From an uncultured virus (IMG/VR IMGVR_UViG_3300031087_000457) (taxonomy: Duplodnaviria; Heunggongvirae; Uroviricota; Caudoviricetes), in IMG/VR virus record IMGVR_UViG_3300031087_000457: 64,000 nucleotides of DNA; one strand, 5' to 3'. Below the pieces are notes generated by a model, which was not told the DNA's origin, did no database searches, and was given only the letters and a program-made list of their open reading frames with translations. Below, piece by piece: positions 1-64,000 of the stretch (the first letter of the stretch is position 1; each line of letters starts with the position of its first letter). The position numbers were made by a program, and so were the translations under genes.

Positions 1-1
1 C

Positions 2-1291
2 GAGCACTATGGCTCCAAGGAAGAGGCCACTCGGGCCTATGAGACTCGCATGGAGGCAGAGGCTGATGGAGGCCGGGAGGCCGAGCGGAAGGCTCAGGCA
101 GAGGAGCGTCTCGCCAGGGTCGAGGAGAAGGTCCTTCGGGAGGAGAACAGCGAGCTCGACTTCGACATCATCCGCCACCAGCTCAAGTGGATCCGAAAGT
201 GGGAAGAAGACTGGACGGAGGACGATCACTACAATCTTCGCATCGTTCAGAAGCTCACACAGCTCACCTCGGAGGATGACTGGAACGAGGAGAAGGAGGC
301 CCAGGCGGAGCGACTCCTCGCGGAGATGAGACCAGCTGTGGATAGGCCCTACATTCGTTACCCAGGAAGTAGGGGTGGCTGGTCCACCAATGATCCGAGC
401 TGGAACGACTCCAACGCCCGGGACCAGAGCCTCAACAAGCTCGCAGAGAATCTCCTGCAGCGTCGGCGCATGGAGGAGCTCTCCCACGAGCCTGTGGAGG
501 GTGAGCTCGACAACCCTCGGCTCCTCGGGCTCAGGGATGCCCAGGAAGCCGCGCTCCAGGAAGCTGCCTACTTCCGTCGCTACACCGGAGAGGTTGAGGT
601 TCGCATGGGCAGGGTTGAGCCCCATCTGCAGGAATCAATCTCCCGGGTAGCTCGCGGGGACGAGTGGCATGGGCTCGCCGAGGGTGCTGACCACCGGAGC
701 CTTCTTCCGGTTGGAGAGCGCGTCTTCGCCGCCATGCATCCGGATGCTCCCGGTGACCTTCGCAACAACCAGCTCTACCTGGCCACGGTCTTCCCGGTCC
801 GAGAGCTCAAGGCTGAGATGGACCGCATCGGCATCGACGGTGTTTCGGTCTCCACCCTGGACAACGGCCGGGAGCAGGGCAATATCTACACCGTGATGAC
901 CCCCGACGGAAGCACTCGATCCTTTGCCGTCTATGAGCACCGGAACAGCGACTCCATCATCATCAACGGCCGGGAGGACTGGAACGGAGAGGGGCTTCCC
1001 TACGCTGGAGACAATAAGAACCAGTTCTTCGCTGAGTTCGAGGAAGAGGACCGGGTGCGAGCCGCACAGTCGCTGACCTTCTACCTCTCGGCGGCCCAGA
1101 AGGGTACCCTGGAGGAGGATGCTGAGCTCGTTGCCAAGGCGCAGCACCGGGACTGGAATGCTATCCTCGACGCCCAGATTCCGGGCTTCAAGGCCTGGCG
1201 GCAGGAGCAGATCACGGATCGCTACATCGCTCCCGAGGATGAGAACGAGGAGGACATCCTGAGGCGCCTCGACTTCCCGAGCAGCAGCTAG
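2..1291 (+). CDS. 5'-truncated hypothetical protein carrying the end of the shared His/Cys N-terminal tag
   Basis: Frame is open from base 2 (EHYGSKEEATRAYETRM...), so the true start lies upstream of the window; typical codon usage; followed by a hairpin. Confidence 0.8.
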   Translation, partial: EHYGSKEEATRAYETRMEAEADGGREAERKAQAEERLARVEEKVLREENSELDFDIIRHQLKWIRKWEEDWTEDDHYNLRIVQKLTQLTSEDDWNEEKEAQAERLLAEMRPAVDRPYIRYPGSRGGWSTNDPSWNDSNARDQSLNKLAENLLQRRRMEELSHEPVEGELDNPRLLGLRDAQEAALQEAAYFRRYTGEVEVRMGRVEPHLQESISRVARGDEWHGLAEGADHRSLLPVGERVFAAMHPDAPGDLRNNQLYLATVFPVRELKAEMDRIGIDGVSVSTLDNGREQGNIYTVMTPDGSTRSFAVYEHRNSDSIIINGREDWNGEGLPYAGDNKNQFFAEFEEEDRVRAAQSLTFYLSAAQKGTLEEDAELVAKAQHRDWNAILDAQIPGFKAWRQEQITDRYIAPEDENEEDILRRLDFPSSS

Positions 1292-1312
1292 AGTAGCACA
1301 GAGCACATAGCG

Positions 1313-1353
1313 GGAGAGGCCGTCGGAATCCAATCGGATCCGGCGGCCTCTCC
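1313..1353. terminator. GC-rich inverted repeat between convergent genes (probable bidirectional terminator)
   Basis: ggagaggccg...cggcctctcc. Confidence 0.7.
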
Positions 1354-1388
1354 TGTAGCCTTGCGTAGGCTGCAGCTACGGCTGAAGC

Positions 1389-2520: not shown

Positions 2521-4653
2521 ATGGCGGAAGCTAAGGGTGCAGCGTACAGCGCCAATGACATGGACGAGGTGGACGACAAGGCCCACTACCGTATGCGTCC
2601 CAACCTCGTCTGGGGCGGAGAGCTCGGAAGCCCCGAGCGACCTTTCTCGACAATGCAGAGGACTGCCCTAAGGGAGATCTACGAAAATAGTGTAGACGAG
2701 GCGCTCCAGGGCCACGCGGACAAGATCTCGGTGCACCTCTTCGAGGATCACTCCTTCGAGGTCATCGACAATGGCCGTGGTCTCCCCACTGACATCAACA
2801 AGAAGACCGGCAAGTCCGGCATCTACCAGGCTCTGGGCACGCTGCGCTCCGGCCGTAACTTCGACTCAAGCGACGGCAAGAAGTCCACGGGAACCAACGG
2901 ACTGGGTGCATCTGCTGTCACGATCTTCTCGAAGCGCTTCGATGTGACGGTCTACCGGGGTGGAAAGCAGTACGAGCTTTCCTTCCGGGCCGGTGAGGCT
3001 GGAACCTTCGAGGGCGACGGACCGGATGCGGCCTTCTCGCCCATCAGCGATGTGTCCTACATGAAGATCTCCAAGGACGCTCGCCCCAAGGCAGAGCGCG
3101 AGGGCTGGGAAACCGGCACGAAGATCCGCGTGTGGTTCGATCCTGACGCCTTCCCCACCAACTACCACTACGACGACAACGAGATCGTCGAGCGCCTCAA
3201 GGGCACGGCCTTCCTCGTCCCCAACCTGAAGATCTTCGTCACCAACGAGCTCAACAGGACCGTGGATGAGCAGACCGGCGAGGTCACCATCCAGAAGGAG
3301 GTCTTCGACTTCCCCAATGGCTTCGGCGACATGGTGACGGCCTTCCAGCCCGACCAGCCCATCATCTCTGAGCCCGTCGTGCTCAACGGAACGGCGAAGC
3401 TCGTCACGAGGACTCCCGTGAAGCAGGCCGACGGCAACTTCAAGAACATGGATGTAGAGAAGGAGGTCCCCTACACGGTGGCCTTCTCCTACGGTAGTGG
3501 CTACGACAACTCGCTCCACACCTTCGTCAACACGGTGAACACTCGAGCCCACGGCTCCCACCTCACCGGTGTGCAGAACGCCATGGTGACTGCCTTCAAT
3601 GAGCGCTTCGACTCCATGCGAGGACTCCTCACCAAGAGCGACAGCCTCCCGAAGGTGGATGACTATCTCGAGGGCCTCACCCTGGTGGTGTCGATCTACC
3701 TGTCCTCGGCTCCCTTCACCTCTCAGTCCAAGGAGGCGATCTCCAGCCGACCCGTGCAGAAGTCCATCCAGGATGCTGTGGTGGAGGACTTCAAGAACTG
3801 GATCAAGGCTCCCGCCAATCAGGCCGACCTGAAGGCCATCGCGGCCAAGGTCACCACGGCTGCGAAGAACCGCCAGCAGGTACAGAACCAGCGGGATCTC
3901 CAGAGGCAGAAGAACGAGCTCAAGCAGAGCTCCCTGCCGGACTCACTCATCGACTGCGAGCTCTCGGGCACGGATGCTGCTGAGCTCTACATCTGCGAGG
4001 GAGACTCCGCTAAGACCTCCCTGAAGGCCGCCCGCGATGGTCGCATCAATGCGCTCCTCGGTGTGCGAGGTAAGATCATCAACGCCTACGGCAACAAGAA
4101 CAAGATGTCGGATGTGCTCAAGTCTAAGCCCGTCCAGGAGATCATCAAGGCTCTGGGCGCTGGAGCCGGCAGCGACTTCGACATCAACCAGGTTCGCTAC
4201 GGCAAGGTCTTCTTCGCGGTGGACGCCGATGTGGACGGCAACGCGATTGCCGTCGGCCTCTACGCGCTCTTCTGGGTGCTCTTCAGGCCCCTGGTGGAGG
4301 CTGGAAGGATCTACAAGATCGAGCCTCCCCTGTTCGCCATCCTCACGGATCAGGGCACGAAGTCCAAGAAGCACTACGCTCGAGACGACGCTGAGCGCGA
4401 TGTGGTCATGGCCAAGCTCCAGAAGCAGAACATCAAGTTCCGCGTGTCCCGGCTCAAGGGTCTCGGTGAGATGGAGGATGACGACCTCGAAGAGACCGCC
4501 ATCAACCCTCAGACTCGCATCATCACGCAGGTCACCACCAAGGATCTCGAGGCTGCTCGGCAGGCTCTGGACATCGCCATCGGCGATGATGTCTCGATCC
4601 GCAAGGCCTGGATCGAGTCCTCCGAGGTGGACGAGGAAGAGCTCCTCTCCTAG
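2521..4653 (+). CDS. gyrB: Type IIA topoisomerase B subunit (GyrB/ParE-like)
   Basis: GHKL motifs EIYENSVDE, DNGRGLP, GTNGLGAS; TOPRIM motifs EGDSA, RGKIIN, DADVDG; RLKGLGEM; AGGAG RBS. Confidence 0.93.
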   Translation: MAEAKGAAYSANDMDEVDDKAHYRMRPNLVWGGELGSPERPFSTMQRTALREIYENSVDEALQGHADKISVHLFEDHSFEVIDNGRGLPTDINKKTGKSGIYQALGTLRSGRNFDSSDGKKSTGTNGLGASAVTIFSKRFDVTVYRGGKQYELSFRAGEAGTFEGDGPDAAFSPISDVSYMKISKDARPKAEREGWETGTKIRVWFDPDAFPTNYHYDDNEIVERLKGTAFLVPNLKIFVTNELNRTVDEQTGEVTIQKEVFDFPNGFGDMVTAFQPDQPIISEPVVLNGTAKLVTRTPVKQADGNFKNMDVEKEVPYTVAFSYGSGYDNSLHTFVNTVNTRAHGSHLTGVQNAMVTAFNERFDSMRGLLTKSDSLPKVDDYLEGLTLVVSIYLSSAPFTSQSKEAISSRPVQKSIQDAVVEDFKNWIKAPANQADLKAIAAKVTTAAKNRQQVQNQRDLQRQKNELKQSSLPDSLIDCELSGTDAAELYICEGDSAKTSLKAARDGRINALLGVRGKIINAYGNKNKMSDVLKSKPVQEIIKALGAGAGSDFDINQVRYGKVFFAVDADVDGNAIAVGLYALFWVLFRPLVEAGRIYKIEPPLFAILTDQGTKSKKHYARDDAERDVVMAKLQKQNIKFRVSRLKGLGEMEDDDLEETAINPQTRIITQVTTKDLEAARQALDIAIGDDVSIRKAWIESSEVDEEELLS

Positions 4654-12432: not shown

Positions 12433-13596
12433 ATGCTCCCTCAGAATCTGGTGCTGGCAGTTGATCCCAGCTTTGAGCTCGCGGACGGCACTCGATCCGT
12501 ACGCACCACCTACAGCCCCGACTCCCAGCAGGAGCTCCAGGGCTACTCGGTGACCGTGATCGCTGACTCCCTGGTCCCCCTCGCACCCTTGGACTTCCTC
12601 TACGGCGACCGCATCGGTCAGCGCCTGGAGCTCCTCAATCCGCAGCGAATCACCACCTTCGTGGCCCGATTCCCCCGCTGCATCCTCTCCGAGTACAACA
12701 CTCACCGGGTCTTTTCTCGAAACTCCGCCTCGAGCCGCGCCCGGTCCATCAAGGTGGTCATCGCAGATGTGATGGAAGACCCCTATGTGCCTCTCTTCAC
12801 CGAGAACCAGAAGGGCATGGGTGGACCGATTGTGTCCCCTGAGGTTCAGGCCGCTGCCCGAAGGAGCTGGCTCCTCCAGCGGGACAGCGCAGTTGCGGGC
12901 GTGCTCGGCATGCTCCTCGGCCGCACCATCCCCGTCGAGGAGCTCTCCGATGGGAACTGGAAGACCCTGACGGAGGACTACTACCAGCGCGTCTACCTCG
13001 ACCGGGAGAACATCCCCGGCTCCCTGAACCTACACAAGCAGAATGTGAACAGGATCCTCGAGCCCTTCATGTGGCACGAGGCAGTCGTGACCTCCACCGA
13101 GTGGACCAACTTCCTCCAGCTTCGAGACCACGACGAGGCAGATCCCGCTATCCACGGCATCGCTAAGCTCATGGGCGTCGCACTGGAGGCATCCCGGCCC
13201 GTGGAGCGTGTGCTCCACGCTCCCTTCGCCGGTGAGCTCGTCCGGGAGTTCGAGGCACTGGGCTCTGACATCCTTTCCACGGATGCGCTTCGCAAGGCCA
13301 TCGAGGCTGCCAACTACTCAGCGGGTGCTGCTGCTCAGGTCTCCTACCGGCCGGTTGCTGGTGGAGGCACCGGAGCCAATCCCGCTAAGCTCGCTGACCG
13401 GCTCCTCGCCATGAGCCACCTTTCGCCCTTCGAGCACGCTGCTTTCAGTAGCGCCTGGCTGAAGTCCCTGGGGCTCCGGGATGAGATCCACAGCAACCTT
13501 TCCTCGGAGTGGACGCAGCACCGGGCACTCCTCTGGTATCTCCAGAAGCTCACCGGCAGGGATGGTCTACCGGCCGTCCTCGAGGTGCTGAGCTGA
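12433..13596 (+). CDS. thyX: Flavin-dependent thymidylate synthase-like protein (phage-type ThyX)
   Basis: THRVFSRNSASSRA, HKQNVNRILEPF, NFLQLR, HLSPFEH motifs. Confidence 0.75.
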   Translation: MLPQNLVLAVDPSFELADGTRSVRTTYSPDSQQELQGYSVTVIADSLVPLAPLDFLYGDRIGQRLELLNPQRITTFVARFPRCILSEYNTHRVFSRNSASSRARSIKVVIADVMEDPYVPLFTENQKGMGGPIVSPEVQAAARRSWLLQRDSAVAGVLGMLLGRTIPVEELSDGNWKTLTEDYYQRVYLDRENIPGSLNLHKQNVNRILEPFMWHEAVVTSTEWTNFLQLRDHDEADPAIHGIAKLMGVALEASRPVERVLHAPFAGELVREFEALGSDILSTDALRKAIEAANYSAGAAAQVSYRPVAGGGTGANPAKLADRLLAMSHLSPFEHAAFSSAWLKSLGLRDEIHSNLSSEWTQHRALLWYLQKLTGRDGLPAVLEVLS

Positions 13597-21782: not shown

Positions 21783-23606
21783 ATGGCAAAGAGGAACATT
21801 CGAGAGCTGATCGGTGAGATCAAGAGCTCCCAGGACATCGCAGACTACATCTCTGCGGCAGGCGTAGCCCTGAAGGCTTCTTCCGCTGGTAAGGCCAAGG
21901 GGCTCTGTCCGTTCCACGGAGAGAAGAGCCCGTCCTTCTATGTGGACAGCAACTTCCAGAACTACAGATGCTTCGGCTGTGGCGCCAACGGAGACCTCGT
22001 CAACTTCGTCCAGGAGTACGAGAACCTGAGCTTCATCGACTCGGTCAAGAAGCTCGCCGAAGTAGCTGGCATCGAGTACGATCTCGAGGACTCCAAGCCA
22101 GGCTTTGACTACCGGGCAATCCGGGACTGCGTGGAGGCTACGCACAAGTTCTTCGTGAAGTCCTTCGCCAAGCTTCCAGACGACCATCGAGCCAAGCGCG
22201 AGATCACCGAGACTCGCGGGCTCACCTACGACAGCATGGACTACGGCTACGCTCCCGAGGGGCGCGTCAACCTCTACAAGCACCTCAAGGAGAAGGGGTT
22301 CTCCGACGAGATCATGCTCCAGGCAGGCGTTGTCTCCCAGTGGAAGGACAGCGGCAAGATCTCCGACTTCTGGAGTGGCCGGCTCATGTTCACCATGCGC
22401 GATGCCACCGGAAAGGCCGTGGGCTTCAGTGGCCGCCACCTCTTCGAGGCCGACAAGCGCGGCAAGTATGTGAACTCTCCCGACGGCCCGGTCTTCGACA
22501 AGGGCGCTCTACTCTTCCACCAGAGTGAGGCTAAGCAGGAGGCCAAGAAGTCCGGCGTGCTCTATGTGGCCGAGGGGCAGTTCGATGTGACTGCCATCGC
22601 GGCCTCCGGCATGCCCAATGTGGTGGCCTCCTCGGGAACTGCCTTCACACGCAAGCAGGTGCTCATGTGCTCCCGCATGGTGGGAGAGAACGGCCGGGTG
22701 GTCTTCACCTTCGACGGCGACGATGCGGGTCAGAAGGCTGCCTACAAGATCTTCGCCCTGGCAGATGAGCTCCAGAGCCAGTGCTATGTGGTGAGCCTCC
22801 CCGAGGATCAGGACCCCTGTGACTTCCGCAAAGAGAACGGACCCGAAGCTCTGCGAGAGGAGCTCGAGGGTGCGGCCGTGCCCATCGTGGAGTTCGTGCT
22901 CAATGTGATCGCAGGCCGCTATGACCTCAAGGATCCTGCCCAGGGTGCCCGCTACCTCGATGAGGCTGCGGTGATCCTCAAGGGCATCACCAGCCCCGCA
23001 CTTCGAGCAACCTACGCGAAGCGAGTTGCGCTCAAGTCGCTGATGACGATCTCCACGGTGGAGGAAGCCATCGACCGAGCCAAGAGCGCAAAAGAACTCC
23101 CCCAGAGGCAGCTTCCACCCCGAGCTGACCAGGAAGAGGAAGAGGTCGAGACTCGCAGCGACTTCGTCAGCCACGCCCAGCGTGAGGAGAAGTTCCTTCG
23201 AGACTTCGAGGACAGCGAGCTCAAGCAGGCCACCGCTCGGCTCCTCCAGCTCGCGCTCCACCAGCGCTCACTGATTCCAGAGTTCCTCAAGATCGAAGCC
23301 GCTCCGAAGCCCCTCCTGGTCATCGCCAAGGAGATCTCGAAGCTCCCCGAGGGTGCCCCCATCATCGCAGAGAAGTCCCGGGTACCCCTGATCCTTCAGA
23401 CGGTGATCGAGCAGACCTACTTCAAGCACCTGAAGATCATGGATGAGCAGGATATCTCCGATCTCTTCGACCACATCGCGAGCGAGCTTGCCCGGGACCT
23501 CGAGCTCCGAGAGCTCAAGCGCAACTCCCGAAAGATCATGGATGTGCTCCGGGAGAGCTCAGATCCGGAGCTCCTCAAGCTCACCGAGGAAGAGGCCAAT
23601 GGCTGA
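21783..23606 (+). CDS. dnaG: DNA primase DnaG
   Basis: CPFHGEKSPSF...CFGC zinc finger, KYVNSP, EGQFD, FDGDDAG, DPCD. Confidence 0.95.
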   Translation: MAKRNIRELIGEIKSSQDIADYISAAGVALKASSAGKAKGLCPFHGEKSPSFYVDSNFQNYRCFGCGANGDLVNFVQEYENLSFIDSVKKLAEVAGIEYDLEDSKPGFDYRAIRDCVEATHKFFVKSFAKLPDDHRAKREITETRGLTYDSMDYGYAPEGRVNLYKHLKEKGFSDEIMLQAGVVSQWKDSGKISDFWSGRLMFTMRDATGKAVGFSGRHLFEADKRGKYVNSPDGPVFDKGALLFHQSEAKQEAKKSGVLYVAEGQFDVTAIAASGMPNVVASSGTAFTRKQVLMCSRMVGENGRVVFTFDGDDAGQKAAYKIFALADELQSQCYVVSLPEDQDPCDFRKENGPEALREELEGAAVPIVEFVLNVIAGRYDLKDPAQGARYLDEAAVILKGITSPALRATYAKRVALKSLMTISTVEEAIDRAKSAKELPQRQLPPRADQEEEEVETRSDFVSHAQREEKFLRDFEDSELKQATARLLQLALHQRSLIPEFLKIEAAPKPLLVIAKEISKLPEGAPIIAEKSRVPLILQTVIEQTYFKHLKIMDEQDISDLFDHIASELARDLELRELKRNSRKIMDVLRESSDPELLKLTEEEANG

Positions 23607-40300: not shown

Positions 40301-41494
40301 TCCGGTGTGATTGCAGGATCTGAGCAGCGGAACCCGGCTCGAGCTCAGGATACTGCTTCGGACCTTCTCGCTCAGGCCCAGCAGGCATCTCAGGCTCAGC
40401 GCGAAACCGCTAGAGGGGCTCAGGAACCGACAGCACAGCCTCAGCAGACCCAGCAGCAGAGGCCTGCTAGAGGCATCCCGACAGAAGCATTCAGTGCACC
40501 TGTCGGACAGCCCGAAAGCGCCTCAGAAGCCCGCACAGAGCCGCTGAGGAGGGAGTCTAGCACTCCTGTCGCTCCAGCTCAGGCTCCGACAGCGCCACTG
40601 ACCGATCTTCGAACCGGACCTCCTCGACCCCCGACGGCCGAAGAGCAGCGAGTAGCCAGAGAGGCTGCAGCCCGGGGGCAGGAAGCTCGGGTAGCCGCAG
40701 CAGCTGACACTCAACCCCAGGGCGATTCGGCGGCTCGAGAGAGTGAGAACCGGGCCCAGCGCCAGCGTGAGGCCGACGCCGAAGCTCTGAGGCAGAGAGA
40801 GGCCCGGGCTCAGGCTACACAGCGTGCCGCAGAGACTCAGAGGGCCGACGAGGCTCGAACCCAGGCTGAGAATCAGGCCGCACAGCGTCAGCGCGAGGCT
40901 GAGGCCCAGGGGCAGAGGGAAGCCAGCGACAGGGCAGAGGCTCAGCGCCAGCAAGAGGTGAGGGACCGAGCACAGGCTCAGCGTCAGCAGGATGCCGAAT
41001 CCCAGAGGCGCCAGAACGAGGAAAATGCTCGAGCACAGGCTGCCAGGGACAGCGCAGAGGCTCGGGTCCGATCAGCAGCTGATGACTCTATCCGTCGAGC
41101 AAACAGATCCGCCGATGAGCTGATCCAGGAAGCCAACCGAGGAGCAGACGGTCTGAGAAGGCAGGTCGAACAGCTCGCCGGAGGTAGTGAGACAGGTAAG
41201 TCCTATCAGCGAGTCCTCGATGAGATCGAGCGTGTGAAGAATGAGCGCAACCTGACGGAAGAGGAGCTGCGCTCCAGGCTAGATGCTATCTCTGCGGAGT
41301 CCAGAAGGATCACCGATAGGTTCTCCGATCTGGTGCCCGACTACCTCGTAGGCCCCACTCAGGATGTTCAGGACAACATCGATGCTCAGGTTGAGCGAGT
41401 TCGATCACTGCGGGACATCCGGGACGCTGACGGAGGCCCGAACGATGGTGGACCTCGACCTCCTCGAAACGGAAACCCCTTCAGAAGCCGATAG
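37322..41494 (+). CDS. Giant VirB6/TcpH-like conjugation membrane protein 1 with a coiled-coil/low-complexity tail
   Basis: Multiple TM blocks; CQLWKAFVLQPYAQGSFG motif shared with the paralogues. Confidence 0.7.
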   Translation: MSQSMRGSSYLGSTPKSALSRPRRFGSLAALLMVFAVMLSTFATIPLIDSLMGSSKDGAISSASAMWCADPKQGELGVGMNSKSNWNGGSSRYVHDDTSGRILTAQEAFGNGVRFTNFAGAGEGQEWLFGAAPLGLPEKDDDKDEKLKSVVSYTGNTPKGEGTENWYKNMNSSRVPTKCVLGGAGTLMASGILGLSGSITNLMGGISTFAFDPNFICEPNEPQGNCIDLVGIIGGAGKSDQGIIGKLTSSVYFPLLTLVALLVGVYIIWNGLAKRQFRQTFIGVLWAVVVTILGIGLLLNPLLLAKAPMVAGNALTSCIVGAFTGSGGCADGSGGTGSSDPQTALCEAWSSKTDFVDKASITMTSMGCQLWKAFVLQPYAQGSFGAPLDELDTSRSDTIAGKLIAKNPGFDKTTFCVDTKVKGKLDSHYGNTLDLTKSGAQICNLAVYQAYLGVNAKMDSGAGGNPPAAGEIDARWLKVAQLAATDEGMYRSWAPSDMHLAQIGYASLGLLSAFLAAIVVFVVSAFALAFYVTSILMLAFAPFFLLVGVHPGKGKSMMIGWIGQVLSNIMKYAASAIFLVITVALYSATLSNVTNPGAILIFMIILTVALLMYRKEIVDMIGVIDLGGEKLSNKFGEWTKDRLGNVGKTAMAVGAGVTAGALSNGALNPMRKENWTVGGVRRNLGDSFRAGNDSFRRSVKSRPGMVGEVMKASDRISADNRADMVRQSTAVTKEAQTAERELSNAKKTGKDLASSFSANEKDAQTRIDALRVENETADKSLLQSEKLMGEVSGAEDIALAGVGSDAFRQYQDLVNQLRDLKIKAEVAVANGDSEGAERLNASAATIASGIESARSNMSDQEFAAGRSQYRSILAENIQDPLVNEKNAENHANQVAKVYGNDMSTLARTAREAEEISSTKATTEADLNRKIAENAQKTIEAQRAADRLGKAAEVARQEVIDLKPGQSVTNKSVREKAKRIEDIRNGGDEDQSAASGVIAGSEQRNPARAQDTASDLLAQAQQASQAQRETARGAQEPTAQPQQTQQQRPARGIPTEAFSAPVGQPESASEARTEPLRRESSTPVAPAQAPTAPLTDLRTGPPRPPTAEEQRVAREAAARGQEARVAAAADTQPQGDSAARESENRAQRQREADAEALRQREARAQATQRAAETQRADEARTQAENQAAQRQREAEAQGQREASDRAEAQRQQEVRDRAQAQRQQDAESQRRQNEENARAQAARDSAEARVRSAADDSIRRANRSADELIQEANRGADGLRRQVEQLAGGSETGKSYQRVLDEIERVKNERNLTEEELRSRLDAISAESRRITDRFSDLVPDYLVGPTQDVQDNIDAQVERVRSLRDIRDADGGPNDGGPRPPRNGNPFRSR

Positions 41495-41531: not shown

Positions 41532-43145
41532 TTGAGCGACGAAAGACCAGAGGACCTGGAGGAGTTCCCCGAGAATCCCTCCGGGGAGCCTGGAGACACT
41601 CGATCGGGCTTCAGGGAGCGTAGGGATCAGCTCAGAGCCCAGAGCCAGTCCCGGCGAAGCGCACGGGAACAGAAGGCTCAGGAGAATCCCCTCGAAGCGG
41701 CCAAGGGTGCTCGAGAACAGTTCGGAGACAAGCTAGGCGCTGGAGGAGCCAAGGGCCGCGAGCTCCTCGGCTCGGGCAAGGATCGAGTCACCGCTGGTAT
41801 CGACCGGGCCGCAGAGAATGGCAACCGGGCTGCCCAGGGCGTACAGGCAGCTAAGCGAGTCGCTGAGACAGCTCGTGCTGTTGGAAGCACCGTCAAGAAC
41901 ATCGCAGTAGCTGGTAAGAGCTTCGTTGTTTCCCTGGGAAACCCCGTGAGCCTGATTGCCATAGCCGTGGTGATCGTGCTCGTCTTCATCACTCTGGCCG
42001 TAGTCACAGGTATCCAGGTCTACGGCAAGAACGATGCCGTGGAGAACTGCAGCGACAACGGTTCGGTGACGAAGGTAGATGTGCCCACCGACGCCAGCAC
42101 CAACGACAACCGTGATGCCATGATGGGCTGGCTCATGCAGAACAACTTCAAGTCCAACGGAGGTAAGCCGCTTTCTAAGGAGCAGGCTGCAGCCGTGGCT
42201 GGAAACTTCGCTGCTGAGTCGGGCTTTGGCTTCAAGGTCACCGAGGGTCACACCATGGACGGTGCCTCCAACGAGCAGGTGGATTCCTGGACCCGTGGAG
42301 GTCCTCGAGGACTCGGCATGGCCCAGTGGACCTGGAACCCGGGCCGCGCGGGAACCCTCATCGAGCTCGCCAAGAGCCTCAAGAAGAACTGGTACGATCC
42401 AGAGGTACAGTTTCAGATGATCCTCAATGAGATGGACGGGGCCTACGGCCCGAGGTTGGCCTCAGCTGGCTTCTTCACGGCTGGCAAGAAGCCCGGTGAG
42501 CTCGCCATCATCTTCCACGACATCTACGAGGGATCCGCTGATACTCCCTCCATGAAGGAGCGCCGGGCCACCTTCGCGGAGGACGCCTTCGCCAACGGTA
42601 AGGCTGGAGGCTACAGCTCTTCCGGTGGAGACAACTGCCAGCAGGGCAACAGCGCATCCTCTGGGGACTGGGTCTACCCCCTTCAGATGCGTAACGGCCA
42701 GCCACTGAACTGGGTGACTCGCTTCGGCTCCTCTGAGCATGAGAATGGGGCACTGGACATCAACGGCGTGGGCAACGGTGGAGCACCCACCGACTGGCCC
42801 GTCTACGCCGCAAGCGATGGCACCGTCCTGTCCATCGGAGACAGCAACTGTCAGGCACTCGTGATCTGGCATGAGAAGGACAAGGTGGCCTCAGCCTATC
42901 TCCACATGAACTCGAAGATCGTCAAGGCTGGAGATCAGGTCAAGGCCGGTCAGCACATCGGAGGCGTGGGCACCAAGGGCTGTGGATCCACGGGTAACCA
43001 CCTCCACTTCTCCATCCGGCCCGACAACAAGTTCGTGAAGAACCCGACCTGGACCTGGATGAAGGAGCACGGAGTGGACATGGGCAAGTGTGTGGGAGAG
43101 AGCACCTCAGCCTGTGCCCTCGGCGGCGCTCCCTACTCGGGCTGA
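41532..43145 (+). CDS. Conjugative cell-wall hydrolase: phage-tail-lysozyme-like plus M23 peptidase
   Basis: AAAVAGNFAAES, GLGMAQWT; M23 motifs VYAASDG, YLHM, VKAGQHIG, STGNHLHF. Confidence 0.85.
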   Translation: MSDERPEDLEEFPENPSGEPGDTRSGFRERRDQLRAQSQSRRSAREQKAQENPLEAAKGAREQFGDKLGAGGAKGRELLGSGKDRVTAGIDRAAENGNRAAQGVQAAKRVAETARAVGSTVKNIAVAGKSFVVSLGNPVSLIAIAVVIVLVFITLAVVTGIQVYGKNDAVENCSDNGSVTKVDVPTDASTNDNRDAMMGWLMQNNFKSNGGKPLSKEQAAAVAGNFAAESGFGFKVTEGHTMDGASNEQVDSWTRGGPRGLGMAQWTWNPGRAGTLIELAKSLKKNWYDPEVQFQMILNEMDGAYGPRLASAGFFTAGKKPGELAIIFHDIYEGSADTPSMKERRATFAEDAFANGKAGGYSSSGGDNCQQGNSASSGDWVYPLQMRNGQPLNWVTRFGSSEHENGALDINGVGNGGAPTDWPVYAASDGTVLSIGDSNCQALVIWHEKDKVASAYLHMNSKIVKAGDQVKAGQHIGGVGTKGCGSTGNHLHFSIRPDNKFVKNPTWTWMKEHGVDMGKCVGESTSACALGGAPYSG

Positions 43146-46630: not shown

Positions 46631-47818
46631 ATGACGACTCAGTCGATGATGCAGCCCGCAGACGCCCTCACCAAGGACCAGGAACTCGCCCTCGGTAGGC
46701 GCATTCAGAAGAAGCTCAGCGCAGAATCCGCAACCGCGCTTGAGGCCACCACCCCGGAGGTCGCAATCGCCTCCATGCAGGAAGAGATCAACCGCGGCCT
46801 CGCAGGTCTCAGCCTCCCCGACCGCAGGCGCTACAGCAATGCGCTGGCAGCTGCCCTCAACTCCGAGAAGACCTCGAAGAAGCTCATGGAGTGGGCTCCT
46901 TCCTTCGAGTACTTCACCCCCGCAGACATGGCCACCCTCCAGGATGGCTGGGCAGACAAGCTCCTCAAGTCCTTCGAGTCCGCCATGGAGAAGAACGGCT
47001 ACGAAGCAAGCGCTTTCGCCGACGAGCCCGGCTTCGACGCCGTCGACCGTCGCAAGTTCCAGCGCGATGGCGACCGGGCAGCTGACGCCCTGGTGCGCAG
47101 CAACATCCTCCTCGTTCGCAGCATGGCCCACGAGTTCAAGCGGCGCATGCCCGCTTCCCCCGACCACGAGGAGATCTTCGCCATGGGCATGGTGGGACTC
47201 TGGAAGGCCGCTCGCAAGTACGATCCGCGCCGGGAGAACAAGTTCTCGACCGTGGCCTACAACTGGATCCGCCAGTCCATCGTCCGAGAGATCAACAACA
47301 CTCACCGGCTCGTCCGGCTCCCCGAGAACCGGGTCGGCGACTACATCGCTATCTCCCGGCTCCGCCGGGAGCTCAAGGACAAGGACATCTCCGAGGCAGA
47401 GTTCGAGGACTATGTCACCGAGAAGCTCGGCCTGAGCAAGGAGAAGACCCGGGAGATCAACAACGCCGCGGGCAACCACGCCTCCCTCAACAAGACCGTC
47501 GGCGACGACGAGGGCGAGAAGGAGCTGATCCACTATGTGGCCAAGTCGACTCCTGCGGCCGAAGAGGTGGCCATCGAGTCCGAGATGCAGACCATCCTGG
47601 ACATGGCCCTCGGTGACCTGGAGCCTCTGGAGCTTGAGATCGTGGTGAGCTCCTTCAAGCTCAGCTACGGCAACATCGAGCACCGCACCGTGAAGGCCAT
47701 CTGTGCCGACGCGGCCATCAGCCCCTCCCAGTACCGGCGCTACTCGGCCAACGCCATGAAGAAGATCAGAGAGCACATGGACTCCTACGGCGTGAGCTTC
47801 GCTGATTTCTTCAGCTGA
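46631..47818 (+). CDS. Sigma-70 family RNA polymerase sigma factor
   Basis: Region 1.2 LTKDQELALGRRI; region 2 SNILLV...GMVGLWKAARKYDP...KFSTVAYNWIRQSI...VRLP; regions 3 and 4. Confidence 0.9.
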   Translation: MTTQSMMQPADALTKDQELALGRRIQKKLSAESATALEATTPEVAIASMQEEINRGLAGLSLPDRRRYSNALAAALNSEKTSKKLMEWAPSFEYFTPADMATLQDGWADKLLKSFESAMEKNGYEASAFADEPGFDAVDRRKFQRDGDRAADALVRSNILLVRSMAHEFKRRMPASPDHEEIFAMGMVGLWKAARKYDPRRENKFSTVAYNWIRQSIVREINNTHRLVRLPENRVGDYIAISRLRRELKDKDISEAEFEDYVTEKLGLSKEKTREINNAAGNHASLNKTVGDDEGEKELIHYVAKSTPAAEEVAIESEMQTILDMALGDLEPLELEIVVSSFKLSYGNIEHRTVKAICADAAISPSQYRRYSANAMKKIREHMDSYGVSFADFFS

Positions 47819-50824: not shown

Positions 50825-53101
50825 ATGGGAATCTCCCTGAAGAGCATTGAGCTCACCAATGTCCGTTCTCACCGAAACTTCAAGTTCGAACCTGCTGATT
50901 CGGGAATCACGGCGCTCTCCGGTCCGACTGGATCTGGGAAGTCCACCATCGTGGACGCCTTCGCCTGGACGCTCTTCGGCCATCGCAACAAGGGGCTCAA
51001 GCACTCTGACTTCATTCGAGAAGGAATCGACTTCAAGAAGGACGAGAAGCCTAGCTCTACCATCGTCTTCGAGGTTGATGGAACGCTCTTTAAGGTTGAG
51101 CGTAGGATCACCGCCAAGAGCGGAAGCCAGGAGTGCGAGGTCTGGGAGTGGAGTTCCGACGAGGAAGATTGGAAGCACAAGGCGGGCACGGCCACATCCC
51201 ACGCTGAGAGCTACATCCGTCAGATTCTCAAGATGGACAAGGATGGCTTTACGACCGCCGTTCTCGTGCAGCAGAAGCAGGTTGATAACCTGATCTCAGC
51301 TGGTCCCACTGACAGGGCAAAGGTCATCGAGAAGCTCACTGGCATCGCCTCGATCAGTTCCGCCATCGTAGCTGCCAGACAGGAGCGCAATCGAACCAAG
51401 GACAAGCTCGACGACGCCTCCGTGGACGAGGACGAGCTCGGCCGCATCGACGGCGAGCTCCTCGAGTCCAGCAAGCGACTCACGGTGCTCAAGGATGAGC
51501 ACCGGGTCGCCAAGGACAAGCTTCAGGCCGTCCACACTAAGCTCAAGGACTTCGAGGAAGAGGTAGACGAGAAGATCAGGCTCTTCGAGCGCTCCGAGAA
51601 GGCACGCAAGGCCCAGAGCGAGATCGAGGTTCGGCTCGAAACTGCCGAGGGACTCCTTGTGGACGCCAAGAGTGAGAAGGATGAGGCCAAGGCTCAGCTT
51701 CCCTCCGGCGGATCTCGAGGCGTGTCCTTCGATGACTCGCTCCGAGCGCTGAAGAAGCTCCAGTCGGCTGTGGCCACCCTGGAGAGCTCCAAGCTCTACC
51801 ACGAGCGCATCCTTTCCAACTCCAACGCCAAGCTTCGAGAGCTCAAGGGGCTCATCGCCGACTCTGACTTCGACTCCCTGGAGGATCTTGAGAAAGCCGA
51901 GGAGTCCAACCGGGAGGAGCTCGACTCCATCGGAAAGAAGCTCCGTAAGATCAGCGATGAGGCCGGCGAGCTCCGCGGTGAGATCTCCCAGTTCGAGTCG
52001 GCCATCGAGGTCGTCTCCCACGGCGAGGACTGCCCAACCTGTCGCCAGTCTGTGTCCGATGTGGCCGGAGCAGTGAAGGCCCTGGAGTCGCAGCGAGACG
52101 CCATTCAGGCCCGGCTCAAGAAGCTCGAGTCCAAGGGTGAAAAGCTCCAGGCAGAGCGAGAGGCCAAGCGAAAGCTCTCCCGAACCCTGGATGAGCTCAC
52201 AGAGAGCTTCGAAGAGCTGAGCCAGGAGGAGAAGGCCATCACCAGCTCCGAAAGCGAGCTCGCCGATGTGAGCTCCGACCTCAAGGCTCGCTCCAGTGAG
52301 CTCAAGGCCGCCGACAAGCTCCACAAGATCGTGGAGCGCGAGGAGGAGAACTCTAGACGCTACGAGGCCGCTCTGGCTCGACTTCAGAAGATCATGCAGA
52401 CCATCGATGACCTCAAGGCCAAGAACAGGCGAGCCGGAGAGATCCTCAAGGAGACCAAGGCTCCCTCCGAGCAGAAGATCAACAGCCTGCGGAAGAAGCT
52501 CTACGAGCAGCAGGTGAGCTACCAGGATGGTCGAGTGGCTCTGGGAGAGCTCAAGTCGGAGGCTCGCATCCTTTCGAGCAGCATCACCCACCTCACTGAG
52601 AAGAAGGAGAGCGCCGAGAAGGAGATCGAGCGCCATAAGGATCTCCTCAAGTCGGTGGAGGTCGCAACTGCTACGCTCCAGACGCTCATCGAGTTCCGGG
52701 CTGATCGAGTCAAGACCGCTCTACCCACCATCGAGAGCTATGCCTCAGAGCTCCTCTCTCGCTTCACGGATGGAAAGTTCGTCGCGCTGAACCTCGATGA
52801 GAAGTTCAACGCATCCGTGGTGCTGTCGAGTGGAGCCAAGAGGCCAGTTGCGCTCCTTTCGGGTGGAGAGCTTTCGGCTGCTGCCATCGCGCTGCGGCTC
52901 TCTGTGAGCATGATGCTCAATGCCTCAGACAGTAGCAACCTCATCATCCTCGACGAGGTTCTCGTTTCCCAGGACGCTGATCGCTCCGAGCTCATCCTGT
53001 CCACCATCAAGGATGTCTGTAGGGGGCAGGTGGTGATGATTTCCCACGGTTCCGGTGTATCCGCCGTTGCGGACAAGAAAGTCGACCTGGCTGGCAGCTG
53101 A
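50825..53101 (+). CDS. sbcC: SbcC/Rad50 SMC-like ATPase
   Basis: Walker A GPTGSGKST, coiled coils, CPTC zinc hook, LSGGE signature, IILDE, ISH. Confidence 0.88.
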   Translation: MGISLKSIELTNVRSHRNFKFEPADSGITALSGPTGSGKSTIVDAFAWTLFGHRNKGLKHSDFIREGIDFKKDEKPSSTIVFEVDGTLFKVERRITAKSGSQECEVWEWSSDEEDWKHKAGTATSHAESYIRQILKMDKDGFTTAVLVQQKQVDNLISAGPTDRAKVIEKLTGIASISSAIVAARQERNRTKDKLDDASVDEDELGRIDGELLESSKRLTVLKDEHRVAKDKLQAVHTKLKDFEEEVDEKIRLFERSEKARKAQSEIEVRLETAEGLLVDAKSEKDEAKAQLPSGGSRGVSFDDSLRALKKLQSAVATLESSKLYHERILSNSNAKLRELKGLIADSDFDSLEDLEKAEESNREELDSIGKKLRKISDEAGELRGEISQFESAIEVVSHGEDCPTCRQSVSDVAGAVKALESQRDAIQARLKKLESKGEKLQAEREAKRKLSRTLDELTESFEELSQEEKAITSSESELADVSSDLKARSSELKAADKLHKIVEREEENSRRYEAALARLQKIMQTIDDLKAKNRRAGEILKETKAPSEQKINSLRKKLYEQQVSYQDGRVALGELKSEARILSSSITHLTEKKESAEKEIERHKDLLKSVEVATATLQTLIEFRADRVKTALPTIESYASELLSRFTDGKFVALNLDEKFNASVVLSSGAKRPVALLSGGELSAAAIALRLSVSMMLNASDSSNLIILDEVLVSQDADRSELILSTIKDVCRGQVVMISHGSGVSAVADKKVDLAGS

Positions 53102-53145: not shown

Positions 53146-54363
53146 ATGCTGAACTTCGTCAACGACCCATTTTGGAACAGCTGCCTGCAATCGCTCGCAA
53201 GGCCTGGAGCCTCGGAGTTCGTTGCCAACGGCCCCGACAGCTTCTTCGTGACCTATCAGGGAAAGAAGGAGCGCATTCCAGCTCCAGCTGGCATGAACCT
53301 GCGAAGCTACTCAGAGACCCTGGAGAAGAACATCGTTCCTCTCGTAGCCTCGCGAATGAACTTCGATCCCGATGGCTACATCTTCGAGGGCCATTACAAG
53401 GCCGATGCTGGAGGGGGAAACTCCTTCGAGGGAAGATGCCACATCGCACTCTCGCCCATCGCGGAAATCCCCTACATCACCATGACCAAGATCGCCTCAA
53501 CTTCGAGCACCATCGAGAGCATCGCGGAGTCGGGCTCCATGAGCACTGAGATGATGCAGTTCCTGATCATGGCGGTCCGCGCAAAGCTCACCATCGTCCT
53601 CTCTGGGCAGTCGGGCGCTGGAAAGACCACCACCCTGCAGGCACTGTCGAAGTACTTCAATGAGCAGGATCGCATCGGCGTGGCTGAGGACATCCCCGAG
53701 CTCTCCTTCCCCCAGTCCAATGTGACCTACCTGCACACGCTTCCCCCTCGCCCCGGGCTTGACCCGAACCTTGTGGCGGACCTTTCCTTCATCGTTAAGC
53801 AGTGGCTTCGAATGCGTCCGGACCGTGGAATCATCGGTGAGTCTCGAGGAAAGGAGTTCGCCGACTTCCTCGTGGCAGCCAACGCTGGTATGAGAGGATC
53901 GCTGACCACCATCCACGCCAGCGATCCATCGGGCGCCCTGGACAAGATGACTCGCTTTGCCCTGGCAGGGTCCGAGAGGCAGCCCATCCGGTCCATCAAC
54001 AAGGAGATCGGCTCAGCGGTGGATCTCGTCGTTCAGCTCGCACGCATCGACGGCAAGCACCGGGTGACCCACATCGAGGAAGTCACGAGCACCGTGAGCA
54101 ACACCGAAGATGCTCGACTCTCCTCGGAGACGCTCTACGAGTACATGCCTGAGACCGACAACTGGAGGAAGTCTGGAGTCCTCTCGGACAGACTTCGCAA
54201 GGAGCTCACTTCCGCTGGCATCGACATCAAGCCCTTCACTTCAGGCGCCGTTGGAACGATGCTTCCGAAGCACAATCCCGCCAGGGCTAACCCCAACAGC
54301 AACAACGGCGGAGGTTTCTCAGGAGAAAATCCTTTCAGAAGCGGACCAGGAAGGTCTATCTGA
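53146..54363 (+). CDS. CpaF/TadA (VirB11-like) secretion ATPase
   Basis: SGQSGAGKTT, EDIPEL, LRMRPDR.IIGESRG, TTIHA. Confidence 0.9.
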   Translation: MLNFVNDPFWNSCLQSLARPGASEFVANGPDSFFVTYQGKKERIPAPAGMNLRSYSETLEKNIVPLVASRMNFDPDGYIFEGHYKADAGGGNSFEGRCHIALSPIAEIPYITMTKIASTSSTIESIAESGSMSTEMMQFLIMAVRAKLTIVLSGQSGAGKTTTLQALSKYFNEQDRIGVAEDIPELSFPQSNVTYLHTLPPRPGLDPNLVADLSFIVKQWLRMRPDRGIIGESRGKEFADFLVAANAGMRGSLTTIHASDPSGALDKMTRFALAGSERQPIRSINKEIGSAVDLVVQLARIDGKHRVTHIEEVTSTVSNTEDARLSSETLYEYMPETDNWRKSGVLSDRLRKELTSAGIDIKPFTSGAVGTMLPKHNPARANPNSNNGGGFSGENPFRSGPGRSI

Positions 54364-56695: not shown

Positions 56696-56697
56696 TC

Positions 56698-62046: not shown

Positions 62047-62051
62047 AGTTC

Positions 62052-64000
62052 GTGGCGAGCTACGCTAACTCCGACCTCAGGAAGAGAACGAGCAGGCCGA
62101 GGACCTTCGGGCTGAGGCCCTTCGCTGCAGTCGCCGTGATCTTCGGAATCGTGCTCTCCATGTTCGGAGTGCTAGCCGCGACTCTAGGACCACAGAGAGC
62201 GGTTCAGGAAGCGGATGCCTTCGACCCCGTGAACTCAGTGATCTGCGGACTCTTCCCCGATGACGCTCCGATCCGCAAGGCCTATCAGGCCTCTCAGACG
62301 GACGATCTCTACTTTGATCTTCAGTCCAAGTCCGCAGTGAGCAGCGGTAAGGCAGATGTGAGCAGCGGCCTCAACTGGATCCTCATGGCTTCGGGCATGG
62401 ACTTCAACAAGGTCAACGAGGGCATCATCGGCCAGGAGGTTGAGAAGGCGGGAACTTCCCTCCGGGAGACCAAGAGCGATGACGAGCTCAAGAAGAGCTG
62501 GAACAAGGGACCGCAGGTAAGCCCCTTCGACCGCTTCGGCATGGCCGGCACCACATTCAGCTCCTACAACGGTGAGTGGAAGTACTACAAGGTCGACTCC
62601 TGCTCCGATGAGGCTCCCGTAGACCTCAAGGAAGGCGACTACTACGAAGGCCGTCTAGAGACAAGGTCCACCTGGGAAGACCGGGCAGACTCCAAGGATC
62701 CTCGCACCGTACAGCACTACAAGGGCGAGACCTCTAGATTCTGGTTCGGCTTCGTCACGCTGATCTCAAACCTGATCTTCTGGGTGACCAAGCTCATCAC
62801 AACGGCTACCATCGCCTTTGTGAGCTTCTCCTTCTCCGACATCAGTAGCACTCTTGGGCTCAATGGCATTCTCTCTGGAGATTCCTCAGGAGACGGCGTC
62901 TTCGGCTATCTGTTCACGGGGGTCTACACTCCGCTCATCGTGCTAGCTATGGTGGCTACCGGCTTCAAGATCTTTTTCGATGGAGTCGTCCGGAAGCAGT
63001 TCCGCAATGCTCTCAGCACTGCAGGAATCTCCATCGCTATGTTCCTCTTCGCCATCGTCGTATCGGTGAAGCCGGACCTCTTCGTGAACTTCCCCAACAA
63101 GGCATCGGTGCTGGTCCAGGCTGTCATCGTCAAGTCCTTCACGGGCGAGCTCTCGGGTGACAGGGGTATCTGCTCCACGGACATCGGAAGCAAGCCCATC
63201 GGCATCCAGGATGGCACCAACGGCAAGGACGACCAGGGCTACCTCGATGGGATTGCCGCTAACATGCGATCCTCCATCGGCTGCAACTTCTGGCAGACCT
63301 TCGTGTTCAAGCCCTGGGCTCAGGGGCAGTGGGGAACCGACTGGAACGAGACCTGGGCCAAGGGCAAGACCGCAAAGTGGGCACCGGCCGGCCACCAGGA
63401 GCTCCAGAACACCAATGGGGCCATCGTGGGAGACGCAGCCGTTCCCCTCGGTGATGGAAAGGTCATGCACAACTGGGCTGTCTTCAACCTATCCACCCTG
63501 ACCAACGCTCACTCTCCCGTCGGCGAGGAAGGCCACTACTCGAAGTACTCCCAGGGTGTGGCCAACGACTGGTGGAGGATCGTGGATGCTCTCACCAACT
63601 ACGAGGAGGTCCCCAACAAGGATCAGATCAGCGTCGCGGGTGGAGGCTCCGAAGACATCGAGTACACGGTCCCCAAGGGCAACGCTCCCCTCGAGGACTG
63701 GGACACCTGGAGCGGCAACAATCCGGGCAACCGCTTCGCGTCGGCTATCTCATCCCTGTTCATCGGAGCGGTGGGTCTCATCGCGCCCTTCTTCCTGGGG
63801 CTCATGGCCGCAGTCTACTCCCTGGGCATGACCATCGTCATGGCCTTCCTTCCGGTGATGCTCCTCTTCGGTGCCTGGGGCGGTCGAGGCTTTGAGATCT
63901 TCAAGCAGTGGGCGAAGCTCCTCTGGAAGCTCTTCACCCAGCGCATCGCTGTGGGCATCATGCTCATGCTTTCCATCGTCTTCGTCAATGCGGCCATCGT
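62052..64000 (+). CDS. Giant VirB6/TcpH-like conjugation membrane protein 3 (3'-truncated; missing from the ORF track)
   Basis: GTG 62052 (MASYANSDLRKRT...), frame appears open to the window end; CNFWQTFVFKPWAQGQWGT at about 63282. Confidence 0.75.
   Translation, partial: MASYANSDLRKRTSRPRTFGLRPFAAVAVIFGIVLSMFGVLAATLGPQRAVQEADAFDPVNSVICGLFPDDAPIRKAYQASQTDDLYFDLQSKSAVSSGKADVSSGLNWILMASGMDFNKVNEGIIGQEVEKAGTSLRETKSDDELKKSWNKGPQVSPFDRFGMAGTTFSSYNGEWKYYKVDSCSDEAPVDLKEGDYYEGRLETRSTWEDRADSKDPRTVQHYKGETSRFWFGFVTLISNLIFWVTKLITTATIAFVSFSFSDISSTLGLNGILSGDSSGDGVFGYLFTGVYTPLIVLAMVATGFKIFFDGVVRKQFRNALSTAGISIAMFLFAIVVSVKPDLFVNFPNKASVLVQAVIVKSFTGELSGDRGICSTDIGSKPIGIQDGTNGKDDQGYLDGIAANMRSSIGCNFWQTFVFKPWAQGQWGTDWNETWAKGKTAKWAPAGHQELQNTNGAIVGDAAVPLGDGKVMHNWAVFNLSTLTNAHSPVGEEGHYSKYSQGVANDWWRIVDALTNYEEVPNKDQISVAGGGSEDIEYTVPKGNAPLEDWDTWSGNNPGNRFASAISSLFIGAVGLIAPFFLGLMAAVYSLGMTIVMAFLPVMLLFGAWGGRGFEIFKQWAKLLWKLFTQRIAVGIMLMLSIVFVNAAI

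Follow-up and report, generated by a model that had tools for sequence, protein, structure and literature searches.

A 64-kb Stretch of a Candidate Giant Conjugative Element Lacks the Word ACGT, Probably through Restriction Avoidance

Restriction-site avoidance is textbook biology for small phages and small plasmids. The question raised here is why a 64,000-base stretch of DNA (IMG/VR record IMGVR_UViG_3300031087_000457, filed as an uncultured virus of the Caudoviricetes and referred to below, at its full length, as the window), which appears to belong to a giant plasmid-like conjugative element, contains no copy of the tetranucleotide ACGT. We think it probable, at roughly two chances in three, that the family to which this element belongs evades restriction–modification (R-M) by erasing recognition words instead of carrying protective methyltransferases, and that in its clade an ACGT-cutting host enzyme lies behind the loss of that word. 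Enzymes that cut ACGT are those of MaeII/HpyCH4IV-type specificity.

The prevailing opinion, based on a survey that took in thousands of plasmids, holds that purging of short targets is beyond large replicons and that methylases serve them in its place (PMC10359461).

ACGT Is Missing from the Window and Is Avoided Codon by Codon

1..64000, both strands: ACGT-free stretch, in which TCATGA, CGATCG, TGATCA, and CTAG are also depleted (counts)

An earlier note on this DNA, made from the letters alone, had described ACGT as apparently absent from the whole 64 kb and had estimated about 200 sites under independence, and counting bears out both statements. ACGT occurs 0 times on the two strands of the window (59.8% G+C). 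The expectation is 229 from base composition, with which the estimate of about 200 agrees; under a first-order model it falls to 113.6, and under a second-order Markov model, the k-mer comparison that the note had proposed, to 97.8. Dinucleotide-preserving shuffles of the window (n = 100) gave a mean of 113.7 ACGT (SD 10.6). CpG is plentiful (CG 4848, ACG 844, CGT 562), and ACGT is the sole missing 4-mer, the next lowest, ATAC, standing at 0.37 of expectation. It had also been remarked that other 4-bp palindromes are common; all of those named are present (GATC 557, AGCT 645, TCGA 571, CCGG 436, CTAG 97), but CTAG reaches only 0.50 of expectation, and GTAC is at 0.59.

Codon analysis covered 39 plus-strand open reading frames (ORFs) with 17,637 codons and 52.9 kb of coding sequence. 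Tyr, His, Asn, and Asp codons preceding Val end in T in 108 cases and in C in none, exactly the switch to T-ending codons ahead of Val that had been noticed by eye, and preceding other G-starting codons they end in C 502 times and in T 261 times. Thr is never encoded by ACG where the next codon starts with T (0/129), compared with 179 of 779 Thr codons elsewhere; ACC takes its place in 99 of the 129 and ACA in 15. Arg CGT is likewise absent after A-ending codons (0/58), and the 11.1 kb of the window beyond the 39 ORFs also has no ACGT. When synonymous codons were redrawn with the window's own codon usage (200 draws), ACGT appeared 109 ± 7.4 times with a minimum of 86, so that the count of zero lies far below composition-preserving and coding-preserving models alike. 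A synonymous codon can always replace ACGT, and the word can therefore be purged without amino acid change. The counts support selection against ACGT that acts at the DNA level, strong and long-lasting, without amino acid cost.

The ACGT Gap Marks One Clade and Is Still Maintained

Relatives were found by means of one gene of the window:

25865..28441, plus strand: VirD4/TraG-type coupling protein, marker for finding relatives (profile match)

All seven metagenomic loci with a VirD4 69 to 95% identical to that of the window have 0 ACGT (L006 to L011 and L013; 4.6 to 22.5 kb each, from contigs that reach 674 kb), and pooled with the window they comprise 168,169 bases with 0 ACGT against 506 expected, both strands counted. 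Locus L012, whose VirD4 is 70% identical over part of its length, has 18 ACGT against 27 expected, and ACGT is near expectation in more distant relatives and in five loci from bacterial genomes. A VirD4 tree was built by a quick search on 29 rows, with L003, L004, L006, L013, L021, L023, L026, L028, L029, and L034 left out as partial, duplicate, or short. The six rows without ACGT group together in one clade (SH-aLRT 99), whose sister is L012 (support 100). Within the VirD4 neighborhood, no gene is confined to the ACGT-free clade apart from an ORF encoding a 104-aa membrane protein. One ACGT-free locus, L011 (22.2 kb), also has 0 AATT against 13 expected.

Whether the gap is merely inherited can be judged at one-step sites, at which one base differs between two aligned sequences and the other three fit ACGT. 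Five ACGT-free sequences were compared (the window and L008 to L011; L006, L007, and L013 were omitted as too short), giving 10 pairs and 60 high-scoring segment pairs of at least 200 columns, with 169,157 columns in all and a mean identity of 76.5%. ACGT was present in either sequence at 0 of 332 one-step sites; the pairs share ancestry, so that this is a count and not a probability. The same statistic for 16 control tetramers ranged from 19% (CTAG) to 69% (TCGA), with ACGC, ACGA, and CCGT at 41 to 56%. Among the 40 strain variants listed, with 2685 more beyond that list, none creates an ACGT. The absence thus persists through about 24% nucleotide divergence, and the comparison shows that the one-step positions mutate freely while the ACGT state is never retained: selection against ACGT is ongoing, not merely inherited.

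The same sites bear on a mutational explanation, in which a methylase of the host or of the element would make A-m5C-GT and deamination would convert it to ATGT or ACAT without any selection. This is the situation described for Helicobacter pylori, in which ACGT (m5C by M.Hpy99XI) is strongly under-represented, as in the window, is silently changeable in coding sequence, as in the window, and is lost mainly to ATGT/ACAT (PMC10423294). ATGT/ACAT is indeed 1.34-fold over expectation in the pooled clade, but CCGT/ACGG (1.30) and TCGT/ACGA (1.17) are raised about as much, so that the excess is not dominant, and ACG ahead of T has given way to ACC far more often than to ACA (99 and 15 of 129). The H. 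pylori case concerns a cell chromosome shaped mainly by m5C deamination, which retains 53 to 295 ACGT per Mb (PMC10423294), whereas the clade has 0 in 168 kb (95% upper bound about 18 per Mb). Deamination also fits poorly with the lack of ACGT at all 332 variable one-step sites and with the lack of a detected C5 methylase (PF00145) in the window and in five complete or large relatives. We regard it as improbable as the main cause, although it may have contributed early; the codons seen today do not show by which mutations the word was first lost.

A sequencing, assembly, or processing artifact might be suspected in that a small number of related plant-surface data sets supply every ACGT-free sequence. 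However, ACGT-normal contigs of the family share data set prefixes with ACGT-free ones (L012, L015, L021, L022, and L024 with L009; L018 with L006 and L008), and Logan's independent contigs of run X1, which may be the source run, reproduce 20 kb of the window with 0 differences. Two more phyllosphere runs contain diverged strains at high depth, and a plant run of another year, 2024, contains relatives. The replacements, moreover, are synonymous and protein-preserving and include transversions. The controls from the same data sets and the independent reassembly therefore exclude an artifact for practical purposes.

Relatives Have Lost Other Words, Several at a Time

ACGT is not the only word depleted in the window. 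Palindromes dominate among the most depleted words: they take the first three places among 882 testable 6-mers, although the class accounts for only 26 of the 882, and the 6-bp palindromes TCATGA, CGATCG, and TGATCA stand at 0.12, 0.14, and 0.28 of expectation; ACGCGT occurs 0 times in the pooled ACGT-free clade. Several palindromes are therefore affected at once in the window and its clade (ACGT, TCATGA, CGATCG, TGATCA, ACGCGT, and CTAG). The earlier note had proposed strong long-term selection against one site: the strength and the duration stand, and the restriction to a single site does not, since other palindromes are depleted with it.

Sister lineages show parallel purges of other palindromes, given here for four relatives as observed against Markov expected counts:

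G002, 344,889 bp, whole: GATC 0 vs. 1116; CTGCAG 0 vs. 55; CTCGAG 0 vs. 15.5; GAGCTC 1 vs. 33; CGTACG 1 vs. 23
G003, 420,240 bp, whole: AGCT 17 vs. 1099; CTGCAG 0 vs. 90; GTCGAC 0 vs. 94; GCCGGC 2 vs. 97.5; CTCGAG 2 vs. 66
G005, 182 kb of 398 kb: AGCT 22 vs. 737; several words at 0, e.g., AGGCCT 0 vs. 24.6 and GTCGAC 0 vs. 18.8
G004, 82 kb of 438 kb: AGCT 33 vs. 246; GGATCC 0 vs. 15.7

Sources of at least 9 kb numbered 35, made up of the window and 34 loci, with four loci skipped as shorter; in 13 of the 35 a 4-bp palindrome stood at or below 5% of expectation. All 13 are family members, some of them near-duplicates, and the loci from bacterial genomes had none (0/4). The purges are lineage-specific, with ACGT purged in one clade only and GATC, AGCT, and CGCG in others. 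Four loci of 21.9 kb each (L032, L035, L036, and L038, from records of 152 to 231 kb with about 35% G+C) have neither GATC nor AGCT; CGCG is at 0 in three of them and at 1 in L036. The residual AGCT sites of G003 are scattered with a loose cluster, 10 of the 17 lying at 339 to 387 kb (L083 to L086), where G+C dips to 52%; this part is probably recently acquired DNA in which the purge is incomplete.

Two asymmetric words are also missing from G003, CCTACG (0 vs. 108) and CCTGCG (0 vs. 179; both strands counted), which together make CCTRCG and suggest avoidance of a Type IIS/IIG/III-like enzyme. Such non-palindromic words mean that more than classical Type IIP enzymes act on the family, and they leave some room for another agent that reads ACGT, be it a defense system, a repair or replication factor, or a regulatory protein. 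The purged set as a whole (ACGT, GATC, AGCT, CGCG, CTGCAG, CTCGAG, GTCGAC, GAGCTC, and GCCGGC, among others), on the other hand, reads as a list of classical Type II targets, and the asymmetric 6-mers fit Type IIS/IIG/III enzymes, which makes another kind of agent unlikely. A connection of the leaf-surface habitat with ACGT as the core bound by plant bZIP proteins was dropped, as nothing supported it.

The Window Appears to Be Part of a Giant Conjugative Element

A VirD4 identical to that of the window is found on a record from a 293,436-base contig, and VirD4 relatives are located on contigs of 206 to 828 kb. Five IMG/VR records with a VirD4 39 to 45% identical to the window's are 309 to 437 kb each; two end in inverted terminal repeats and one in direct terminal repeats, and of the others one is classed as a provirus and the other as linear. 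The family spans 33 to 61% G+C, and its habitat is plant surfaces. In public annotation its members carry only "hypothetical protein" and one "VirD4." The recognizable genes of the window other than VirD4 are as follows:

2521..4653, plus strand: GyrB-like topoisomerase subunit, divergent (460 bits vs. a curated cut-off of 740)
12433..13596, plus strand: ThyX-like thymidylate synthase (phrog_85, E 5.5e-35)
16126-17577 (N part) and 18733-19800 (C part, same frame), plus strand: topoisomerase I, split (profile matches)
21783..23606, plus strand: DnaG-type primase (profile match)
28505..30256, plus strand: conserved protein of the type IV secretion system (T4SS) operon with faint TcpC likeness (E 0.21, nearly the whole profile covered)
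30871..32292, plus strand: TcpF/VirB4-like conjugal ATPase (NF052333, N-terminal half only, positions 5-429 of 813)
32292..33179, plus strand: GmrSD_C (DUF1524, HNH) nuclease-domain protein in the T4SS operon (profile match)
33281..34147, plus strand: NikA-like mobilization (relaxosome accessory) protein (profile match)
35732..37201, plus strand: PIN-PhoH2 helicase/nuclease (profile match)
37322..41494, plus strand: VirB6/TrbL-like mobilome membrane protein, CD3337/EF1877 family (profile match)
41532..43145, plus strand: cell-wall hydrolase with lysozyme and M23 peptidase domains, as in Gram-positive T4SS (profile match)
46631..47818, plus strand: sigma-70 family factor (far under the RpoD cut-off)
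50825..53101, plus strand: Rad50/SbcC-like ATPase (profile match)
53146..54363, plus strand: VirB11/TadA-family secretion ATPase (profile match)
57784-62046 and 62052-63998 (running off the window), plus strand: two large CD3337/EF1877-like membrane proteins (profile match)

The long ORFs of the window are nearly all on the plus strand. Its T4SS core consists of VirD4, the N-terminal half of a TcpF/VirB4-like ATPase, a VirB6-like protein, VirB11/TadA, NikA, and the lysozyme-M23 hydrolase, and a TadE-like protein is also among the monoderm-type conjugation genes, in which no relaxase was recognized. Its genes mark the window as the conserved backbone of a giant, plasmid-like element whose conjugation genes are of Gram-positive type. 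No known plasmid accounts for it, the only DNA match being 92 bases of a Streptomyces plasmid and the VirD4 protein matches being 23 to 26% identical.

Two relatives with terminal repeats are complete. G002 (344,889 bp, 41.6% G+C) is collinear with the window at 2.5 to 64 kb, 27 of the 39 window proteins matching in order, and G003 (420,240 bp, 55.6% G+C) matches 25 of the 39 in order. Both encode a near-complete replisome and the nucleotide-metabolism genes RNR, ThyX, and NAD ligase, and their tRNA genes (43 in G002, 44 in G003) lie largely in arrays, in G002 around 87 to 97 kb. The replication genes of G002 comprise Pol III alpha, clamp-loader subunits, DnaB, RecA, GyrA, RecG, ribonucleotide reductase, and NAD ligase, and it further encodes a PASTA-domain penicillin-binding protein, Tad-type pilus ATPases, VirB4 (AAA_10), tellurite-resistance genes, an rIIB-like protein, and several HNH homing endonucleases. 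The family can accordingly be read as one of giant conjugative elements that are plasmid-like and equipped with a phage-like DNA tool kit.

Jumbo or huge phages would be expected to carry a major capsid protein, a terminase large subunit, and a portal protein. None of these was recognized in the window, in the five relatives, or among the 156 long ORFs of G002 outside the shared block, which also include no translation or transcription core gene. Profiles for Terminase_6N, TerL_ATPase, HK97 capsid, and portal (PF05065, PF03237, PF03354, PF04860) matched in 0 of the 5 relatives, though divergent virion proteins could escape them. A phage identity was rejected on these grounds and because the phage collection held no DNA match to the window.

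The size of the contigs and the gene content bear on the further possibility that the window comes from the chromosome of a cell, such as an ultra-small bacterium, and that the missing ACGT is a genome-wide bias. The window does encode GyrB, TopA, DnaG, a sigma factor, an SMC-like protein, and PhoH2, relatives occur on contigs of 475 to 828 kb, and CheckV takes just 309 kb of one 681-kb contig as provirus. Yet the scores of GyrB, TopA, and the sigma factor fall well short of the NCBIfam cut-offs for cellular orthologs; GyrB, at 460 bits against 740, is therefore not a cellular ortholog. It is 52% identical to that of G002, its nearest Atlas clusters are labeled as viruses, and as a query it found no relative in IMG/VR. 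The window, itself a fragment, has no tRNA and no Rfam RNA, and the complete or large relatives behave as separate replicons, with 16S rRNA in 0 of 5 and RpoB in 0 of 5; the terminal repeats of G002 and G003 and the lack of a translation or transcription core in the 156 ORFs of G002 point the same way. No close relative of the window was found among 185,579 species genomes. Five weak VirD4 matches (22 to 41% identity over the best segment) in Verrucomicrobiota, Saccharibacteria, and Hyphomonas metagenome-assembled genomes all have ACGT at about 0.8 to 1.1 of Markov expectation. A chromosomal origin is thus very improbable.

Several smaller features were seen in these genomes. The insert that splits TopA in the window measures 1.16 kb and contains an ORF with weak SprT likeness (17577-18410) along with an in-frame segment of 116 aa that ends in a stop; in L008 and L011 TopA is uninterrupted, only an in-frame segment of about 0.34 kb is present in L010 and L012, and no intron family was found in the insert at Rfam gathering scores. 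On the minus strand, ORF 8761-9591 is a real conserved gene (44% identity to G002 over 271 aa), and ORF 1389-2432 is lineage-specific without a recognizable family. In G002, about 13 tandem paralogous ORFs of about 350 to 420 aa have no Pfam or PHROGs match (L054, 3145-18721), and a minus-strand ORF (L063, 94-1194) matches phrog_1211 (E 2e-54), an adenylosuccinate-synthetase-like family labeled "2-aminooxy adenylosuccinate synthetase" in PHROGs; the ORF may encode an ordinary PurA or an enzyme of base modification. In G004, the VirD4 region is present in both inverted-terminal-repeat arms (L033 and L034, identical matches at 10.7 to 32.6 kb and 405 to 427 kb), either as a very long real repeat or through fold-back assembly.

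A Self-Encoded Enzyme Is an Unlikely Cause of the Loss

The earlier note had also entertained an element-encoded nuclease or modifying enzyme that attacks ACGT in host or competitor DNA. If the element encoded such a nuclease without a partner methylase, its own ACGT sites would be suicidal, and a lethal self-constraint of this kind predicts an exact zero kept through deep divergence. An exact zero would be harder to reach with the small gain per site commonly credited to avoidance in large plasmids (PMC10359461). Many ORFs of the window have no assigned function, and the window is a small part of the replicon, which leaves space for such a gene. Searches of the window with Pfam, PHROGs, NCBIfam, and PADLOC, however, recovered no glucosyltransferase, methyltransferase, restriction-like, or defense family, so that neither the general proposal nor the BGT-like enzyme named in the note finds support.

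The HNH ORF at 32292, which had been put forward as the nuclease, is a GmrSD_C/DUF1524 protein and the sole nuclease-domain ORF of the conjugation operon, and it is kept at the same position in ACGT-normal relatives (45 to 53% identity). Across the family, its place immediately after the VirB4-like ATPase is kept at 45 to 76% identity. The clade-confined 104-aa membrane ORF is the only gene of its kind near VirD4, and the lineage-specific minus-strand ORF 1389-2432 scored 0.83 in an Atlas search, which is chance level. Relatives have, moreover, purged 5 to 8 different words at once, for which as many self-encoded nucleases would be needed. A self-encoded nuclease is accordingly unlikely.

Restriction Avoidance as the Probable Cause

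Words that resemble Type II targets, differences between lineages, joint purges of several words, and the lack of detected methylases (PF00145, C5, or PF01555, N4/N6, in 0 of the 5 complete or large relatives) together make a signature of restriction avoidance. Of the causes offered in the earlier note, ACGT-specific host restriction is the best supported, since relatives have purged other typical Type II targets lineage by lineage; that a restriction enzyme is the agent and the host its owner is what we infer. In the mechanism that we propose, hosts of the clade would carry a Type II enzyme that cleaves unmethylated ACGT, and the element would enter each new cell unmethylated, so that every ACGT would be an independent added risk of cleavage and each site lost would multiply the chance of establishment. 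With synonymous alternatives always at hand, purifying selection could keep the count at zero with proteins unchanged, and the erased words of each lineage would record the restriction enzymes of its own hosts.

Several points weigh against restriction avoidance in an element of this kind. No restriction enzyme with ACGT specificity and no methylated host genome was seen. The window covers 64 kb of a presumed 293-kb replicon, and the loci of its clade relatives represent the same VirD4 neighborhood, so that purging of a whole replicon is established for GATC and AGCT in relatives and not for ACGT in the clade. The family may also be an unrecognized virus and not a plasmid, as the relatives are filed as viruses in IMG/VR and the nearest Atlas clusters of GyrB are virus-labeled. 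Restriction is further blunted by conjugative entry as single-stranded DNA. According to the plasmid survey, targets are not removed by mutation in large plasmids, and plasmids show no special avoidance of 4-bp palindromes (PMC10359461); the pressure that R-M ordinarily exerts on a plasmid may therefore not suffice for a complete purge. A purge in so large an element would imply either very frequent entry into restricting, non-modifying hosts, in a virus-like lifestyle, or a constraint stronger than ordinary restriction.

Comparable losses are known from much smaller genomes. Twort-like staphylococcal myoviruses reportedly have genomes without GATC (PMC5618024), and the sizes of such phage cases are 5 to 140 kb. 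Another example is phiX174, which its source text describes as devoid of GATC (PMC5014478). Palindrome avoidance in these phages resembles that of the window in that a 4-bp palindrome is fully absent by way of synonymous choices and several other palindromes are depleted. The phages, however, are virulent and have known hosts, whereas the complete relatives of the family described here reach 0.3 to 0.4 Mb, perhaps up to 0.67 Mb, and have a conjugation system and no recognizable virion genes.

The surveyed plasmids share conjugative transfer and depletion of Type II targets with the family. In that study, avoidance of R-M targets is stronger in small plasmids, and large broad-range plasmids carry methyltransferases instead (Shaw et al. 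2023, PMC10359461). The family shows the opposite on each count, being very large, with 4-bp words erased and with PF00145 and PF01555 lacking in all five relatives.

Among giant elements, the closest parallels are the "Inocles" of oral Streptococcus (24 to 32% GC; PMC12340149) and the "Hodor" megaplasmids of gut Bacillota (44 to 47% GC, with Rep_3, ParABM, and a MOBH-like relaxase; PMC12934698). Like the family described here, whose members are of similar size, they are metagenomic, measure about 250 to 370 kb, and have VirB4/VirD4, a monoderm-type T4SS, and many genes of unassigned function. Going by their descriptions, the family is set apart from them by its own Pol III alpha, clamp loader, DnaB, DnaG, RecA, RNR, and ligase, its 43 to 44 tRNAs, its terminal repeats, and its occurrence on plant surfaces. 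The word "restriction" has 0 occurrences in the Inocle and Hodor texts (PMC12340149, PMC12934698).

Avoidance of restriction sites is thus not new in itself. What is new to us is its scale, with 4-bp words erased over hundreds of kb, several at once, and without methylases. In the literature searched, we found no description of such a family or of such purges in giant plasmids. The family combines a phage-like replication and nucleotide-metabolism kit, monoderm-type conjugation, tRNA arrays, and terminal repeats. We put at even odds the fuller proposal that this is an undescribed family of giant elements (0.15 to 0.7 Mb) that bear a T4SS, encode a replisome of their own and about 44 tRNAs, and lack methylases, and which would meet naive restricting hosts so often, as a virus does, that whole sets of restriction words, 4-bp ones among them, are erased over hundreds of kb. 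The list of words erased in each lineage (ACGT in this clade; GATC, AGCT, CGCG, CTGCAG, GTCGAC, and CCTRCG in others) would then be a readable record of the restriction repertoire of the hosts. If the ACGT purge extends over the whole replicon in the clade, the size rule for plasmids fails for this family of giant elements. The purge would then point to unusually strong and persistent restriction pressure or to an unrecognized sequence-directed weapon, and fingerprints of erased words could serve to pair orphan giant elements with their hosts in metagenomes by way of host methylomes.

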